Shown here piece after piece: positions 3,721 to 62,612 of a stretch of 64,000 nucleotides of DNA. Position numbers and translations under genes: made by a program. A model generated the notes under the pieces. That model ran no database searches. It saw only the letters and a list, made by a program, of their open reading frames with translations, and was not told where the DNA came from. Every line of letters begins with the position of its first letter. Within the stretch, counting starts at the first letter, position 1. The DNA is from Escherichia coli (GTDB taxonomy: Bacteria > Pseudomonadota > Gammaproteobacteria > Enterobacterales > Enterobacteriaceae): the NCBI RefSeq assembly GCF_001677475.2, contig NZ_CP015229.1. The stretch is one strand, 5' to 3'.

Positions 3721-3796
3721 TCCTCTGTAGTTCAGTCGGTAGAACGGCGGACTGTTAATCCGTATGTCACTGGTTCGAGTCCAGTCAGAGGAGCCA
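3721..3796 (+). tRNA. asnV: tRNA-Asn (anticodon GUU)
   Basis: 76-nt sequence TCCTCTGTAGTTCAGTCGGTAGAACGGCGGACTGTTAATCCGTATGTCACTGGTTCGAGTCCAGTCAGAGGAGCCA with cloverleaf and CCA end. Confidence 0.97.
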
Positions 3797-3802
3797 AATT
3801 CA

Positions 3803-3830
3803 AAAAAGCCTGCTTTTAAGCAGGCTTTTT
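3803..3830 (+). terminator. Rho-independent terminator after tRNA-Asn
   Basis: Hairpin AAAGCCTGCTTTTAAGCAGGCTTTTT followed by a T-run. Confidence 0.8.
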
Positions 3831-3851
3831 GCTTTGTAATTACCAACGCTC

Positions 3852-4787
3852 TTAAAACATCTGTCTTGAACCAGAACTAATTTGCACAGGCATTCCCGAT
3901 CGTCGTTGCAACGCAGCATTTGCGCGATTTACATCAACTTCTTGCCCGTTGATAAACGCCCGCAAAGATGGGGTTACCGGCAATGGTACTTTTCGGTCAG
4001 ACTCATATTCTGCACGATTGCGCGACAGCGGCTCATGAACTTCCAGCCACTTTGAACCATCCGGTTCCGTTGTGTATTTCACTGGCTGATCAATAATTTG
4101 AACACGAGTACCTACAGGAACATTATCAAACAGATATTTGATATCGTCATTGCGCAGACGAATACAGCCCTGACTTACCCGGAGCCCAATACCAAAATTG
4201 GCATTGGTACCGTGGATGGCATACAACCTGCCAATATAAATCGCGTACAGCCCCATGGGATTATCGGGACCCGCAGGAACAAATGCGGGCAAACTCTCCC
4301 CTCGTTTCGCATATTCGCGCCGAGTGTTCGGCGTTGGCGTCCAGGTTGGAGCTTCTTGTTTACGTTCAACGGTAGTCACCCAGTTACGCGGGGTTTCTCG
4401 CCCAGCCTGGCCGATACCAATAGGAAAGACTTCCACAGTATTACTGTCTGGCGGGTAGTAATAAAGACGCATCTCAGCGACGTTAACCACAATCCCTTTA
4501 CGAACAGTGGCGGGCAAAATCAGTTGCTGCGGAATGGTGAGTTGTGAGCCAGACTTCGGTAAAAAAACATCAGCGCCCGGATTCGCTTCCAGCATATTAC
4601 TTAACCCTTGCCCGTATTGTGCGGCAAAAGTCTCCAGCGGCTGAGTATTGTGATTAGGAACAGTTACAGTAAGCGACTGCCCCACTAAACGGCTACCCTC
4701 TGGAGGTAATGGATAAGTTACCGCCAGGCTATTTTGGCTGGCAAAAAGCAGAGCAAATGAGCAAAGAATATTTACACGACGCATCAT
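3852..4787 (-). CDS. ldtA: L,D-transpeptidase LdtA (ErfK)
   Basis: 311 aa with signal peptide and YkuD-type L,D-transpeptidase domain, matching ErfK as I recall it. Confidence 0.9.
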
Positions 4788-4848
4788 GTCCCTTTCCTAA
4801 GTCGCGAATACTATCCGATAAGTATAGCTTTTATCAGAATTTTCGTTT

Positions 4849-5928
4849 TTAGCTGTTCAAATCAGAAGTCGTATTCCCCGGTAGAACAATATTACTGGCA
4901 GCAAGTTCGCCCATGTTGTTGTATATCGCACAAGCAGCTTCGATGATGGGCATCGCCAGAGCTGCACCACTCCCCTCACCTAAACGCATATCCATATTGA
5001 GATAAGGCTCCAGCCCCAAATGCGACAGCGCTATACGCGCGCCTTTTTCTGCCGACAAGTGAGAAGGAATGAGATACGGTTTGATTGCAGGAGACATCTG
5101 GTAGGCTGCGAGCGCAGCAGCATAAGAAAGAAATCCATCCAGCAACACAGGTAAACCGCAGGAAGCAGCGCCTAACATCACGCCAGCCATTCCGACCAAA
5201 TCAAATCCACCCACTTTTGCCAGGACATCAACGCCATCCTGAGGATTTGGTTTATTCAACGTAATCGCCCGGCGCACAACATCAATTTTATTAGCCAGTT
5301 TATCTGTCGGCAGGTTTGCGCCAATCCCAACCACTTCTTCAGGATCCCGGCCAGTGATTGTGCTGACTATTGCCGCTGCCGGTGTCGTGTTTGCCATCCC
5401 CAGTTCACCTACACCAAACAGCGTGACACCGTTTTTTGCCAGCTCCCGCGTATAACATATGACGTCCAAAAGCAACTTTTCAGCCTGACGGCGACTCATT
5501 GCCGGAGCTGAAGCAATATTGCCGCTACCTCGTGCGACACGCATGTTGATAAGCCCGGGGATAGGCTTAGCAGTATCAATACCAACATCAATTACGTGGA
5601 CGTTAGCGCCCGCTTGTGCTGCCAGCACACACACGCCGGTTGTTCCGCGGGTCATATTTTCAGCCTGAATGGCTGTCACTTCTTTTGGGGAAATAGCGAC
5701 CCCTTCCTCCCAGACGCCGTGATCGGCACACATAACCAGTACTGCTTTTTTGCCCACATGCGGTATGCCATTCAACCCCGGCATTCCCGCCAGTTGTATG
5801 GCAAGCGCCTCCAGCCTTCCCAGGCTACCAACAGGTTTGAGTAACCCGTCGATATGCCGTTGTGCACGCGACATAGCGGCAGGATCGATGGCAGGGATCG
5901 TATTCAGTAAATCGGCAAGTGTTTGCAT
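4849..5928 (-). CDS. cobT: Nicotinate-nucleotide--dimethylbenzimidazole phosphoribosyltransferase
   Basis: 359 aa CobT family ([40 protein letters not shown]...). Confidence 0.93.
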
Positions 5929-5939
5929 GTCACGTCTCT

Positions 5940-6683
5940 TTATAGCATTGCCAGCAGGAAGACCAGTTCACCTAGCTCTATGGCTGCTCCCAGCGTATCG
6001 CCGGTTTGCCCGCCCAGCGTACGTTTGAGAAGCTGACCGAGAATGAAAATCGCAGCCATCGTCAACACCATAGCAGCCACACCATGCATACCCGGCAATA
6101 ATACGGCAGCAAAAATAGCGGCTAAGCCGAGTGTGACGCAGGTTTGTCGCCCATCAATTTTGCCAATGAACACATTGCCAAGCCCTTCTTCCCGGGCATA
6201 ACGATGACGATACATCAATAATGTGGCAGTCCCGCGGCTGACCGCACATGCTGCCGCCAGCGATGCAAGGATCGGTTCGCCACGCAGAGCCAACTCGCTT
6301 AACACCAGAATCTTTGCCAGTACAACAAAAATCAAGGCCAGACCGCCGTGGGTGCCTAACCGGCTATCCCGCATGATTTCCAACATGCGTTCGCGACTAC
6401 GTGCAGAAAATACGCCATCACAGGTATCGGCGAGGCCGTCCAGGTGGAATCCCCCGGTCATCAGCGCCAGCACAAGTACGCTAAACAGTGCCGCCAGTGG
6501 TACGCCACACCATGCCTGCAGCACCATGAAGACCAGCCCGCTGATCGCGCCAAGCAATAATCCAATCAAAGGAAAAGTAATAATACCGCGAGAATAATGC
6601 TCGAAATCCAGTCCCTGGGACCAGCGACGCGGTACAGGCAGACGCGTAATAAAAGAGAGCATCGCCCAAAATAATTTACTCAT
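5940..6683 (-). CDS. cobS: Cobalamin (5'-phosphate) synthase
   Basis: Polytopic membrane protein; true start taken at [18 protein letters not shown] (tracker ORF is 12 codons longer). Confidence 0.9.
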
Positions 6684-7225
6684 TTGATTTTTACTCCAAT
6701 ACCCGAAACCACCAGCCATACTTCATTTGCCGCAGCGGCCAGCTGCTGATTTACCCGCCCGGCAATATCACGAAAATGTCGTGCCAGACGACTCTCCGGC
6801 ACAATCCCCATACCCACTTCGTTAGTCACTAATACAACCTTTGCGGGGCAACGTTGGCAGGCAGTAATCAACGACTGAATCTCAGCATTAATCGCCTGTT
6901 CCATCACCTGATAATCCCATTCATCAGGGTCTTTATCGCCGCCATAATCAAACAACAGATTAGTCACCATTGTGGTAACGCATTCCAGCAACACAGCCTC
7001 ATTCGGGTTAATGTCTGCATGAATTAATTCATCAAGATGTTGCCAGCGCTCCACTGTGCGCCAGTGCGCCGGGCGGCCTTGCCGATGATGTTCTATCCGT
7101 GCAGCCATCTCATCATCAAGGATTTGCGAGGTGGCGATATACAGAACCTGTGAAGAGTCCCCAATAAGCGCCTCTGCGTGGCGACTCTTCCCGCTCCGTG
7201 CGCCCCCCGTCACCAAAATCATCAT
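6680..7225 (-). CDS. cobU: Adenosylcobinamide kinase / adenosylcobinamide-phosphate guanylyltransferase
   Basis: 181 aa, P-loop [18 protein letters not shown]; overlaps the cobS start. Confidence 0.93.
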
Positions 7226-7358
7226 ACCGACTCCTGATTCATTTGTATGATGGTATTCATTGAACAGAACAATGGATCCCCCACCGTTGCTGACCGCAAA
7301 ACATTTACGCGATTAATACTGCGCGTAATATAATTAAAAATCCAGTATTCTCAATCCA

Positions 7359-7796
7359 TTACGAAAGAAGATGGCATTGCGGGATAGCCAGACTTCCTCG
7401 TGTTAACGTCCGACAAAATGCGTCATTGACAGCGGTTTCTCTGGCATGACAGATTTCATTCAGATAATGGATTAATGCTGCAGCCCCACCAGCCGGACCA
7501 GTCAGCAAACGGGCATTGTGTTCTGCAATCAAAATTACCGTCGTTCCCTCAGAATGAGCGAGCCATTCTGGTACAGATATCTCGCTTTCAGCTGCTATCA
7601 ATAGCAGCACTGAATAATCGCTATATGCATCTGATAACGATTGCACAGGCCCACCGTCAAAAGGCTGGAAATCTTGCTGCCAGTCCTCACCAACAAAACA
7701 GGTTATTGGCAATATTTCAGCCAGATGTTTCGCCAGGTCCACATCTCCAGATAAGAGGCAAAAAAGAGCTATCGATTCGGGTTTTATCGTTTTCAT
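7359..7796 (-). CDS. Hypothetical protein (145 aa from MKTIKPES; tracker ORF begins earlier at a GTG at 7865), function unassigned
   Basis: ORF between the cobalamin riboswitch and cobU on the same strand; GGAGGG Shine-Dalgarno 9 nt before the ATG; I cannot match it to a Cbi/Cob family. Confidence 0.45.
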   Translation of the reverse strand: MKTIKPESIALFCLLSGDVDLAKHLAEILPITCFVGEDWQQDFQPFDGGPVQSLSDAYSDYSVLLLIAAESEISVPEWLAHSEGTTVILIAEHNARLLTGPAGGAAALIHYLNEICHARETAVNDAFCRTLTRGSLAIPQCHLLS

Positions 7797-7899
7797 GCCC
7801 CTCGCCCTCCACTTAATTTCCTGTAATGGCGGTCTGGTTGATAAGCCATGAAACAAGATTGCCACACCTTAAGTGCAGCCCTGGTGCCTGTCGGCACTG

Positions 7900-8170
7900 C
7901 GATGAAAGAACTAAATGATGCCGCCATACCCTGATCCTTTCAGGGTGGTAGGGGTATAAAGACGCGCCTGTACTCTACCTGACGCTTCCGGGCAACCCAC
8001 TTCCCACCGAAGTTGTTGGTATTGACTGACTGGCTGGTCTTCTGGCTTAGCGTCATCCTCACCCGACCTTCCCAATCTCGCGATCAGTGGCATTTTCGGG
8101 TTTGTCAGCATTACAGCAGCGGGGGCTGCGAGGGATTTTCACCCTCTTCCCAGGCACAAATGTGCCACAC
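7900..8170 (-). promoter_or_regulatory. Cobalamin (adenosylcobalamin) riboswitch, cob-operon leader type
   Basis: Minus strand reads ...GCCTGGGAAGAGGGTGAAAATCCCTCGCAGCCCCCGCTGCTGTAATG...GCCACTG...GGGAAGG...AAGCCAGAAGACCAGCC (B12-box) = conserved cobalamin aptamer core. Confidence 0.85.
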
Positions 8171-8277
8171 CTGTCAGCGTATGTTATGAGCTGATTTCAC
8201 TTTTCCCATAACAGGTAAATAACGTTAATTATTCATTCCAGCGTTTATTTAAACCTTCCCTTTTTTTAGCATTTACT

Positions 8278-9192
8278 CTATACCGTTTCCATCGCCGCAT
8301 TTTCACTCACTTGCTGTCGATACACCTGCGGCGTAACCTGATAAGTCTGACGAAAAACTTTGCAAAAATAACTGGTTTGTGAAAAACCTAAATTACGCGC
8401 AATGCTGGCGATGCTCCAGTCGCTATGGCACAGTAACTCACGAGCGCTGGCCATCCGTTGTTGGTTTACCCACGCATTAAACCCGATTCCATGGTATTTC
8501 TTGAATAACTTACTGAAATAATAAGGGCTTAGATAAACATGCGAGGCGACATCTTCCAGACGCAAATCGTCTGATAAATGCGCATCAATATAGCGTAAAG
8601 CTTTTTTCATTTTATTGTCGTGGGGACCAGGCGCACGAGTCTGGCGCACCGAATCTGACTGAGATTTGTTCTCTTTAATAACCACAAAATTGAGTTGTTT
8701 TTTGAGGCAATTTTCTACAATCAACTTCAACAAATCAGCAGAGGCCATAACTCTTGAGTAATCCATCTCAGGGACTTTGCGAAATTCATTAAGTAATTCG
8801 GGATCTGCCTGCCAGCAATCATCGACATTCAGAATATCGACCAAATCGACATCATCATTACGCAGACGAACTTGCCCGCACAATACAAAACCGACTAAAT
8901 GCCCGGCGATTACCAGTGGAATAGAGAAATCGGTTAATCCGGCATGACAGCGATAAATACAAGGCTGATCGGATTTAGAGGCTTCCAGGCCCCCACAACG
9001 ATCGCTCATGCGACATCGAGTGCTTAGCTGAGGGTGTTGCCGCATCAACTGACAAAATGGAGTGAAGTTAAACAGCTCGGAAATTTCATCGCCGTGAATA
9101 TTGACCACGACAACCGCAAGGCTGGTCGCCTGCGCAAAATCCTGCGCGATTTTATTAATGAGTTCTGAATTAAGTGTCGCCGCAGAAATCAT
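8278..9192 (-). CDS. pocR: AraC-family regulator of the pdu/cob regulon
   Basis: 304 aa; C-terminal AraC-type HTH; matches Salmonella PocR as I recall it. Confidence 0.9.
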   Translation of the reverse strand: MISAATLNSELINKIAQDFAQATSLAVVVVNIHGDEISELFNFTPFCQLMRQHPQLSTRCRMSDRCGGLEASKSDQPCIYRCHAGLTDFSIPLVIAGHLVGFVLCGQVRLRNDDVDLVDILNVDDCWQADPELLNEFRKVPEMDYSRVMASADLLKLIVENCLKKQLNFVVIKENKSQSDSVRQTRAPGPHDNKMKKALRYIDAHLSDDLRLEDVASHVYLSPYYFSKLFKKYHGIGFNAWVNQQRMASARELLCHSDWSIASIARNLGFSQTSYFCKVFRQTYQVTPQVYRQQVSENAAMETV

Positions 9193-9394
9193 GATAAAAC
9201 CTCCCAGTTAATTTATTGTTATAGCAAAACAATTGTTTTACATTTAATCTTCACATCATCCTTGATGATTTACTGACGAGAAGCACAAAGGACAATAACA
9301 AAAGCCTCCGTGAAGCGGGAGACTTTTTAATAAGTTCGGAAAGCAGATCACAAACAGTAAAAAAATAAACGTTTATAACTGCCAGATTATTTCG

Positions 9395-18262: not shown

Positions 18263-18750
18263 ATAACATGCTGATGCAACGTATTGTTGACGAAGTGGTT
18301 TTTCGCCTTAAACAACGTGCGGGAAAAGCACTCGTGCTGACTGTTTTTCAACTGCGAGACGCCAGCGTTCAAGAGAGCGTTCATCAGTATGCGTCATTAC
18401 AAATCCGATATGTCGATCTGCCGTTGTTACGACAACTTGCGGAGAACAAAACGTCAGATCGAGCAGCAATTCAGATACACGAAGCGTTAGCCTGGGGATT
18501 GCACATTCAATTGTCGTTGCAGCGTCATTTCCTGAACGCCATTGAATTGAAGACTCTCGCCCGTCTACCGCTAAGCTGGTGCGACGAGCAAGGGCAACCG
18601 ATCTACCTTCATCGTGATCGACTTTTAAGTTATGCCGATATTGCACAGTTAAGCTCGGGAATACTGGTGTTACAGCGAAAATGTTGTGTGACCGCACTGG
18701 CTCGTGAAGCGGCAATTACCCGAAATATTCAGTTAATCAGGCAGGAGTAA
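18259..18750 (+). CDS. pduM: Microcompartment structural protein PduM
   Basis: 163 aa; position between pduL and pduN. Confidence 0.85.
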   Translation: MNNMLMQRIVDEVVFRLKQRAGKALVLTVFQLRDASVQESVHQYASLQIRYVDLPLLRQLAENKTSDRAAIQIHEALAWGLHIQLSLQRHFLNAIELKTLARLPLSWCDEQGQPIYLHRDRLLSYADIAQLSSGILVLQRKCCVTALAREAAITRNIQLIRQE

Positions 18751-18753
18751 CCT

Positions 18754-19029
18754 ATGCATCTGGCTCGAGTCACTGGCGCGGTAGTATCCACGCAAAAATC
18801 ACCTTCTCTGATCGGGAAAAAACTGCTGCTGGTTCGCCGGGTCAGTGCTGACGGCGAACTGCCTCTCACGCCATTAACCGGCGACGAAGTTGCCGTTGAT
18901 TCCGTCGGCGCAGGCGTTGGTGAGTTGGTACTCCTCAGCAGTGGTTCCAGTGCCAGACATGTGTTTTCAGGCCCTAACGAGGCCATCGACCTGGCAGTGG
19001 TCGGCATTGTCGATACGCTTTCGCGCTAA
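18754..19029 (+). CDS. pduN: Microcompartment vertex protein PduN (BMC-P)
   Basis: 91 aa [15 protein letters not shown]... EutN/CcmL family. Confidence 0.9.
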
Positions 19030-24804: not shown

Positions 24805-25248
24805 ATGCAACGTATGATGCTCATCGGCCCCAGCCAGTGCGGAAAAACGTCGCTCACGCAATGTCTGCGTGGCGAAAATATTCATTATCAGAAAACGCAG
24901 GCAATCGTCTGGTCCCCGACCACCATTGATACACCAGGCGAATACCTCGAAAACCGCAGCCTCTACAGTGCTCTGTTGGTCAGCGCCTGCGAAGCGGACA
25001 TTATCGCCCTGGTGCTTAATGCGGACGCACCGTGGTCCCCTTTTTCGCCAGGCTTTACCTCGTCAATGAATCGCCCGGTCATTGGAGTAGTAACCAAAGC
25101 AGATTTAGCCAGCATGGAACAAATATCTTTGGTGAAATGTTGGTTACGGGAAGCTGGAGCGCACAACGTGTTAGTAACCAGTGCGGTTAATAACAATGGA
25201 GTTACAGAACTTTTTGCCTTGCTGCATACAGAAGATGTCTGTCGCTAA
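24805..25248 (+). CDS. pduV: PduV (Ras-like GTPase-family microcompartment-associated protein)
   Basis: 147 aa with P-loop [10 protein letters not shown]. Confidence 0.9.
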
Positions 25249-25348
25249 TTTCGATAGGTTATCAGATGGGAATGATGACTTTGATACACAGAAAAGAATC
25301 AATGAGCAATGAGGGTTGCCGGGCAACCCTCATTGAATAAAACAGGAA

Positions 25349-25678
25349 TTACTTCGCTTCGCCGTTTTTCATTTCGCCCATAGCTTTCAGCTTTTTGGAG
25401 ATATCGCGGCGTTCTTTGGAGAGCTCGGCATTTTTGATGATGTAATCGTCAACACGATCTTCATAGTCACCTTTCATGCTGGCGATGATGCCCTGGATTG
25501 CTTCAACGCTCATCCCCGGCTTGATGTAATCGCTCAGGTTGTCCAGCAGCAGGACGCGCTTCTGGTTGTCACGGATCTTTTTCTCAACGTCCTGAATTTC
25601 ACGTTGCAGTTTGTTCTTACGACGGAACAGACGAACAAATTCCAGTACGTCCTGGAATGAAGGCTTGGTAGTTTCCAT
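25349..25678 (-). CDS. yeeX: DUF496 family protein YeeX
   Basis: [41 protein letters not shown]...; start taken at METTK. Confidence 0.9.
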
Positions 25679-33378: not shown

Positions 33379-33644
33379 GGTCATTCTCCTTTACGGTGAT
33401 AACCGTCGCGTAAGCAAAAAATTGCCCCATTTTTTTGGATTCCTCAGCGACAACAACTGTCGATTTTTAGTAAATATCTATCCGGTACGAAGCCCGGCCT
33501 CTTGGTATGAATGATTGGTTTGAAGCAAAAAATAACCGACGCTGATGAAACGTCGGTTTTTAGTCATTTTTTGACAGCGGCGCATTGTGCCTAAATAGGG
33601 GGGAAATGACAAGAGAATGAGAGGCTTGTCATAATAATTTTTCT

Positions 33645-62573: not shown

Positions 62574-62612
62574 CACGCTACCGCCCCTGGCTTTACAGCT
62601 ACCAGAGCACTG
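62574..62612 (-). promoter_or_regulatory. JUMPstart element with ops (RfaH-dependent antitermination site) in the O-antigen operon leader
   Basis: Minus strand reads CAGTGCTCTGGTAGCTGTAAAGCCAGGGGCGGTAGCGTG; ops core GGCGGTAGCGTG. Confidence 0.9.

Follow-up and report, generated by a model that had tools for sequence, protein, structure and literature searches.

The pdu operon in the Escherichia coli DNA analysed here (64,000 nucleotides, hereafter the window) ends at pduV, and the two genes that follow it in Salmonella, pduW and pduX, are absent. This is a real but ordinary finding, an old, fixed, genus-level gene loss, and we are confident, short of certainty, in reading the region as that of an ordinary pdu+ E. 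coli in which an ancestral Escherichia deletion removed pduW and pduX, a hairpin in the remaining spacer most likely acts as the 3' stem of the tmaR (yeeX) transcript, and the losses are tolerated. A sequence-only reading of the same DNA had called the two genes missing; relative to Salmonella they are indeed absent, and through a real deletion, but the condition is normal for the species and not peculiar to this genome. The pduV-terminal architecture is already visible in hundreds of RefSeq annotations and is implicit in a published table for strain LF82, in which the 'entire' pdu operon ends at pduV (PMC6379400), and the literature searched held no explicit statement that pduW and pduX are absent from E. 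coli, or that yoeF is a pduV remnant. The present analysis adds a few small points, namely bracketed deletion edges, the fossil pduX stop codon within the hairpin, and a link between that hairpin and the 3' end of tmaR.

Organization of the locus

The window starts with ldtA, cobT, cobS and cobU, followed by a cbi remnant, a cobalamin riboswitch, pocR, pduF and pduA through pduV, and it continues beyond pduV with tmaR, yeeA, sbmC, dacD, sbcB, the his operon and an O-antigen cluster; this places it at about 44-45 min on the E. coli chromosome. The order pduA to pduV, with divergent pocR and pduF, is that of the Salmonella/Citrobacter-type microcompartment operon, complete with its shell, dehydratase and reactivase genes and those for PduL, PduP, PduQ, PduO and PduS, and NCBIfam matches were obtained for PduS, PduT, PduU and PduV. 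The last gene of the Escherichia pdu operon, pduV (24,805-25,248, plus strand), encodes a GTPase-like protein of 147 aa that belongs to the EutP/PduV family, matching TIGR02528 over its full length with 186.7 bits (curated cut-off 138.35) and Pfam PF10662 with 185.6 bits (5e-55), and that is 100% identical to a protein annotated in E. coli JNE151685. Convergent with it lies tmaR (yeeX, DUF496; 25,349-25,678, minus strand), the product of which matches the TmaR model NF040881 with 188 bits and is 100% identical to K-12 TmaR. The spacer between the two genes measures exactly 100 bp (25,249-25,348), so that the sequence-only reading was accurate both in ending the operon at pduV and in placing the convergent yeeX about 100 bp further on. 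Tblastn with Citrobacter PduW and PduX found no match in the 64-kb window; pduW does not follow pduV, and pduX is not the last gene before yeeX. The closest match of a 2.4-kb query running from pduT into yeeA was strain JNE151685 (99.0% identical), annotated in the identical order as pduA to pduU, EutP/PduV and then tmaR, and the window's ORF sizes and order agree with the RefSeq annotation of this locus.

The window also holds an Rfam match to the sRNA STnc230 between pocR and pduF (9,253-9,336, plus strand, 76.3 bits), STnc240 (33,525-33,599, minus strand), a tRNA (3,721-3,793) and, upstream of the O-antigen cluster, a JUMPstart element (62,574-62,612, minus strand).

That the operon of Salmonella continues with pduW and pduX, as had been stated, is borne out by the Salmonella enterica chromosome examined, with the order pduV, pduW, pduX, DUF496. 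In Citrobacter youngae pduV (6,001-6,453) is followed by pduW (6,438-7,652), whose product scores 828 bits against NF009063, by pduX (7,745-8,611), whose product has a GHMP kinase N-terminal domain and close homologues named L-threonine kinase by NCBI, and then by convergent yeeX; from the pduW start to the pduX stop the distance is 2174 bp here and 2176 bp in Salmonella. When all loci were compared by tblastn, pduW and pduX lay downstream of pduV in each of the 21 non-Escherichia loci (Citrobacter spp., Pluralibacter, Pseudocitrobacter, two MAGs and Salmonella), with tmaR next wherever the sequence reached that far, a single locus (L018) excepted, and pduV led directly to tmaR, with neither gene between, in the window and in every Escherichia locus. 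In the Salmonella chromosome (LR134149.1) pduW is itself broken into two ORFs of 268 and 132 aa (3,728-4,943), and yeeA and dacD are likewise split; this is probably a pseudogene-rich, host-adapted serovar, and the split pduW hints that the gene is dispensable in Salmonella too.

Distribution in E. coli and the genus

Of 5426 complete E. coli genomes, 643 contain the 2.4-kb query in colinear form, with at least 80% of its length covered at a single place. An insertion of 2.2 kb would split this match between two places, and the colinear genomes thus carry no pduW and pduX at this point; they represent essentially all pdu+ complete E. coli, so that the whole operon is retained in about 12% of the complete genomes. 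Neither pduW nor pduX was found at the pduV-tmaR locus in any of the 5426. A sensitive blastn search with the Citrobacter pduW-pduX segment detected pduW-like DNA in one genome, that of deer isolate 48, at another site, and at this sensitivity detected pduX-like DNA in none. Strain 48 carries a second, divergent pdu island running from pduA to pduW (NZ_CP166879.1, 5,244,379-5,260,146), with a PduV that is 72% identical, with pduW and without pduX, located elsewhere on the chromosome between IS66/IS21/IS4 fragments and a cdiA locus.

A shorter query consisting of pduV and the spacer was complete in 642 of the 5426 genomes and present at least in its 3' part in 5417. This distribution bears directly on the possibility that pduW and pduX were deleted recently and in this strain only, a view for which one can cite the absence of the genes relative to Salmonella. 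The same junction, with an identical or near-identical spacer, is found in the 643 complete E. coli and in sister species, and its remnants persist in the 5417, so that a strain-specific event is refuted by the distribution and may be regarded as extremely improbable. The sequence-only reading had itself allowed that pdu loci natively ending at pduV in this lineage would make the arrangement ordinary, and such loci are what the 643 E. coli and the other Escherichia possess. Even less probable, to the point of being negligible, is an artefact of assembly or annotation, in favour of which there is no supporting point and which is refuted by the recurrence of the junction sequence in hundreds of complete and independent assemblies (95.8-99.4% identity).

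Beyond E. coli, the same junction with a recognisably homologous spacer occurs in E. albertii, E. whittamii, Escherichia sp. MOD1-EC7003 and two divergent species representatives labelled E. coli. References to the whole genus are to the Escherichia species recovered, and the single genome scan recovered no locus of E. fergusonii, E. marmotae or E. ruysiae. In E. albertii NBRC 107761 pduV (6,001-6,432) has an earlier stop (GAA TAA) and encodes 143 aa, and near their 5' end the spacers of this species and of E. whittamii carry 8-9 extra nucleotides that look like a short tandem duplication (ATTTCGAC/ATTTCAGT). Two MAGs labelled Planctomycetota and Segatella copri contain short contigs with an E. 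coli-type pduV tail, the former with a partial tmaR as well, and are most likely E. coli contamination.

In most pdu-negative E. coli the match starts at base 262 of the query, which corresponds to window position 25,066. The 3' part of the K-12 gene 'yoeF' consists of the last 183 bp of pduV and ends 100 bp before tmaR (yoeF at 18,576-18,932 of the K-12 locus; the pduV tail at 25,066-25,248 of the window), and yoeF is a chimeric ORF with a pduV remnant as its 3' end. The independent operon losses inspected, in strains that include E. coli WL297, hubt-sl, Br_178_kylling and K-12, have their breakpoints at pduV bases 146, 262, 268 and 271, or carry an IS1 element within the spacer; the hairpin was spared in every one. 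As to context, the break at base 146 is fused to the cbi remnant, that at base 268 lies near cobU, and that at base 262 is accompanied by the CP4-44 island.

Edges of the deletion

The sequence-only reading had proposed an alignment with the Salmonella pduV-pduX region as a means of locating the deletion endpoints; comparison with the outgroups placed the left edge closely, and the right edge could be bracketed only. On the left, PduV C-termini and the nucleotide comparison put the edge in the last two or three pduV codons (25,240-25,248, plus strand). Escherichia PduV proteins end in ...EE(G/V)CR* and those of Citrobacter and Salmonella in ...EPSCLTK*; homology between the two groups continues across the codon for the conserved Cys (TGT C..) and ends straight after TGTC, a point that in the outgroups falls inside the overlapping pduW start, ATGTCTCAC. 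The window protein is accordingly three residues shorter than its 150-aa counterparts in Citrobacter and Salmonella, and in Escherichia pduV has acquired a new stop codon, TAA.

The right edge, upstream of the pduX stop, can be narrowed down to the left 58 nt of the spacer (25,249-25,306), the ends of this stretch included. This segment is fast-evolving filler with no demonstrable remnant of pduW or pduX. Blastn with a word size of 7 recovered no such remnant from the 100-bp spacer, Smith-Waterman comparisons of the spacer with the full pduW-pduX of six outgroups yielded p-values that were mostly above 0.05, at inconsistent positions, and the alignment with C. amalonaticus was not significant. 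A transition-aware local alignment with the 3' end of pduX reached p of about 0.02-0.03, the matched segments being mutually non-colinear, and a right-anchored colinear alignment of the spacer gave p of 0.5-0.97; the proposal that the 58 nt are a recognisable pduX tail was rejected on account of these non-colinear pieces and the negative colinear test. Between K-12 and the window there are seven differences in the left 58 nt and none in the 29-nt hairpin, which is consistent with neutral filler beside a constrained element.

The rest of the spacer is occupied by the hairpin, CAATGAGGGTTGC-CGG-GCAACCCTCATTG (25,307-25,335; a 13-bp stem and a 3-nt loop), and by a 13-nt tail, AATAAAACAGGAA (25,336-25,348), that leads to the tmaR stop codon and can be aligned with Citrobacter ..CATAAAAC... 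The sequence-only reading had noticed a hairpin here and quoted a 21-mer, GAGGGTTGCCCGGCAACCCTC, which is exact on the minus strand (plus strand, GAGGGTTGCCGGGCAACCCTC), but the palindrome is larger than quoted. The 100-nt spacer folds with -24.9 kcal/mol on the minus strand and -31.5 kcal/mol on the plus strand, with z-scores of -4.3 and -5.5, respectively, and none of 200 shuffles was as good. Across the genus 94.5% of the stem cells are paired and two positions show compensatory double changes; the support from covariation is modest, as 31 of 500 shuffles did equally well. An Rfam scan of the spacer returned no family at E<=1, and the element does not behave as a member of the REP/BIME repeats, for the query of pduV plus spacer occurs at a median of one and a maximum of two places per genome.

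From the hairpin to the tmaR stop, the sequence shows significant similarity to the stretch between the last pduX codon and the yeeX stop in the outgroups. Global alignments summed over seven outgroups, with p-values taken from hairpin-preserving shuffles, gave p = 0.0007 for E. coli, 0.003 for E. whittamii and 0.001 for E. albertii, an example being C. amalonaticus CAGTGAGGATC...GATCCTCACTG against E. whittamii CAATGAGGATTGC...GCAATCCTCATTG. In the outgroups the pduX stop codon is formed by bases 4-6 of the hairpin (CAG TGA, CAG TAG or CAA TAA), and the E. coli hairpin reads CAA TGA at 25,307-25,312. Judged from these alignments, the TGA in its 5' arm (25,310-25,312, plus strand), which is aligned with the outgroup stops, is the stop codon of the lost pduX, preserved as a fossil, and the whole structure is homologous to the Citrobacter/Salmonella hairpin that straddles the pduX stop; it is the ancestral pduX/yeeX intergenic hairpin.

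Deletion or separate acquisition

Because both flanks are homologous to the corresponding Citrobacter and Salmonella flanks, the absence of pduW and pduX amounts to a real evolutionary deletion, and an internal deletion is the simplest reading of the left- and right-flank homology. An ancestor of Escherichia with the Citrobacter/Salmonella-like arrangement pduV-pduW-pduX-yeeX would have lost about 2.1-2.2 kb, from the first pduW codons to somewhere before the pduX stop, prior to the divergence of the Escherichia species sampled. The left edge of the deletion would have given PduV its new, three-residue-shorter end, and the junction of pduV, 100 bp and tmaR would since have been inherited throughout Escherichia. 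In nearly all E. coli outside the roughly 12% of complete genomes with the whole operon, the operon itself would later have been lost by several independent deletions or insertions that kept the pduV tail, the spacer and the hairpin.

The alternative scenario, that Escherichia never had pduW and pduX and acquired its operon separately from a donor ending at pduV, which landed beside yeeX, could draw on the modest identity of Escherichia PduV to the non-Escherichia PduV proteins compared (only 66-78%), and on the horizontal transfer of cob/pdu among enterics that Lawrence and Roth are said to have proposed in 1996. It is problematic for a number of reasons: Citrobacter and Salmonella share the synteny cobUST-(cbi)-pocR-pduF-pduA..V-yeeX-yeeA-sbmC, the PduV homology runs exactly to the point at which pduW starts, and the hairpin region has its homologue in the outgroup stretch between the pduX and yeeX stops and keeps a stop codon in the aligned position. 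Separate acquisition is for these reasons improbable, and deletion from within an ancestral operon is preferred.

The hairpin and the 3' end of tmaR

Assuming such a deletion, one may ask what the retained hairpin does. It has the GC-rich stem-loop of an intrinsic terminator, in the form of its 13-bp stem, but neither strand has a U-tract within 0-2 nt of the stem, which is followed by CUCAUUGA.. when read on the minus strand and by AAUAAAAC.. on the plus strand, where the flanks are A-rich. A classical intrinsic terminator was therefore rejected, as there is no U-tract and a consensus terminator scan makes no call.

Evidence from K-12 points in another direction. Supplementary file 1 of the Term-seq study of Adams et al. 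(2021; PMC7815308), which has one tab per growth condition, lists yeeX three times, and two of these listings give a primary 3' end at 2078989(-), which maps to the base immediately 3' of the stem, 1 nt past it. A further 156 nt past that 3' end, at 2078833(-) and in antisense orientation to yoeF, Supplementary file 2 records a region of Rho termination, with a Rho score of 14.2 (p = 4.5e-50) and sensitivity to bicyclomycin; the authors note that 3'-5' exonucleases trim Rho-terminated RNAs. An RNA end 1 nt after the stem, together with a strong bicyclomycin-sensitive region downstream, fits Rho termination followed by trimming, and the hairpin is most likely a protective stem-loop that fixes the 3' terminus of the mature, strongly expressed tmaR mRNA. 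In this scheme tmaR transcription would run past the hairpin, Rho would stop the transcript inside the antisense pduV, and subsequent trimming would shorten the RNA as far as the base of the stem. The underlying data are those of K-12; as the window hairpin is identical to that of K-12 and the pduV tail is about 95% identical, the same sequence of events would be expected in the window strain.

A competing view is that the hairpin is a bidirectional intrinsic terminator serving both the pdu operon and tmaR. The position of a stable GC-rich stem between convergent genes would suit this function, as would the mapping of the K-12 tmaR 3' end at the stem, but neither strand provides a U-tract, the plus-strand flanks are A-rich, the consensus scan is silent, and an RNA end 1 nt past the stem, followed 156 nt later by a region of strong sensitivity to bicyclomycin, is at odds with it. 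We consider bidirectional termination unlikely, though slightly less so than separate acquisition of the operon, and favour the protective stem-loop.

These lines can be combined into a more speculative proposal, to which we would give a minor share of our belief: the fossil pduX-yeeX hairpin might have outlived both the pduW-pduX deletion and the later operon losses because it forms the 3' end of tmaR, and read-through from tmaR, Rho-terminated in antisense to pduV, might damp the last pdu genes in pdu+ strains. In an RNA-seq study of strain LF82 exposed to bile salts, pduO, pduP, pduQ and pduT rose 2.5-3.3-fold, and pduU (1.1-fold) and pduV (-1.2-fold) were not induced (PMC6379400, Table 4). 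The flat response of pduU and pduV would fit a damping of the operon end by tmaR read-through; if the reads were not strand-resolved, the pattern could also reflect the tmaR read-through itself, antisense to the end of the operon.

Proposed tolerance of the losses

The sequence-only reading held that propionyl-phosphate would need another kinase and suggested a search for ackA and tdcD homologues, and both genes were found: ackA is present in 5422 and tdcD in 5377 of the 5426 complete E. coli genomes, which makes them core genes, and full-length comparison of K-12 AckA and TdcD with Citrobacter PduW gives 43% identity for each. AckA is reportedly able to replace PduW in Salmonella, a finding attributed to Palacios et al. 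in 2003. The loss of pduW would then be tolerated because AckA and TdcD can turn propionyl-phosphate into propionate, or because propionyl-CoA enters the methylcitrate route.

For pduX, the relevant observations lie at the cob end of the locus. An intact cobalamin riboswitch (RF00174, 109.5 bits; 8,015-8,189, minus strand) lies upstream of the cbi remnant, an ORF (7,359-7,865, minus strand) resembling the N-terminus of CbiG, which matches positions 1-126 of the 351 in profile NF004463 (E = 1e-20), falls far below its cut-off and has no Pfam match. It is odd that this stub resembles cbiG, and not cbiA or cbiP. The gap from the riboswitch to cobU is only about 790 bp and holds, apart from this one remnant, no cbi genes, which means that the genes for de novo corrin synthesis are gone from the locus. 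Without them a threonine kinase feeding the aminopropanol linker step, the role reportedly assigned to PduX by Fan and Bobik in 2008, would have no use. The loss of pduX would thus be tolerated because the cbi genes that it served are gone and corrinoids are salvaged through cobUST.

A PduX homologue (P0046) that is 80% identical to Citrobacter PduX does occur in a rare assembly labelled E. coli (e.g. GCA_002521365.1), and it is the only 'E. coli' L-threonine kinase whose genomic context was examined. It sits outside any pdu operon, within a cbiA-cbiB-cbiC-cbiD.../cobA island associated with IS elements, and its neighbour, where cobD would be expected, is a gene of the aminotransferase family. 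As part of an acquired cbi/cob island the homologue was rejected as a pdu-locus pduX. Its location suggests that pduX travels with B12 synthesis genes. The proposal of the sequence-only reading, that the loss of pduX fits the loss of de novo B12 synthesis, is therefore plausible, with indirect support from the missing cbi genes and from the placement of this homologue.

Implications

The importance of the finding beyond correct bookkeeping is limited. Nevertheless, models of 1,2-propanediol metabolism for pdu+ E. coli, such as the Crohn's-associated AIEC, should not take over the Salmonella pathway as it stands, as pdu+ E. coli are without a dedicated propionate kinase or threonine kinase; propionyl-phosphate would therefore have to go through AckA or TdcD, and B12 would have to be salvaged. 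In addition, the junction is a handy marker at the genus level, and it explains the K-12 'yoeF' as a pduV tail.

Comparison with known systems

The pdu operons of Salmonella enterica and Citrobacter freundii, which read pduABCDEGHJKLMNOPQSTUVWX with pocR-pduF divergent, are the obvious point of reference. The window shares with them the chromosomal site between cobUST/pocR/pduF and yeeX-yeeA-sbmC, the order of genes from pduA to pduV, and the convergent yeeX with a hairpin beside its stop codon. It differs from them in that pduW and pduX are absent, in that a gap of 100 bp separates pduV from yeeX where theirs between pduX and yeeX is 33-39 bp, and in that the cbi genes beside pdu are reduced to a remnant. 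With regard to the kinases, AckA and TdcD belong to the same acetate/propionate kinase family as PduW, but are encoded elsewhere in the genome, outside pocR/pdu control. At the K-12 yoeF/CP4-44 junction the 183-bp pduV tail, the spacer, the hairpin and tmaR are preserved at about 95% identity, the hairpin without any change, whereas pduA through most of pduV has been lost and a CP4-44 element stands in their place. Finally, the 3'-end-protecting stem-loops of Dar and Sorek (2018), as cited by Adams et al. (PMC7815308), resemble the tmaR hairpin of K-12, which likewise has a stable stem without a U-tract, an RNA 3' end directly at its base and, further downstream, a region sensitive to bicyclomycin; the tmaR hairpin differs from them in that exonuclease trimming is here deduced from data on K-12, a strain that has itself lost pdu.
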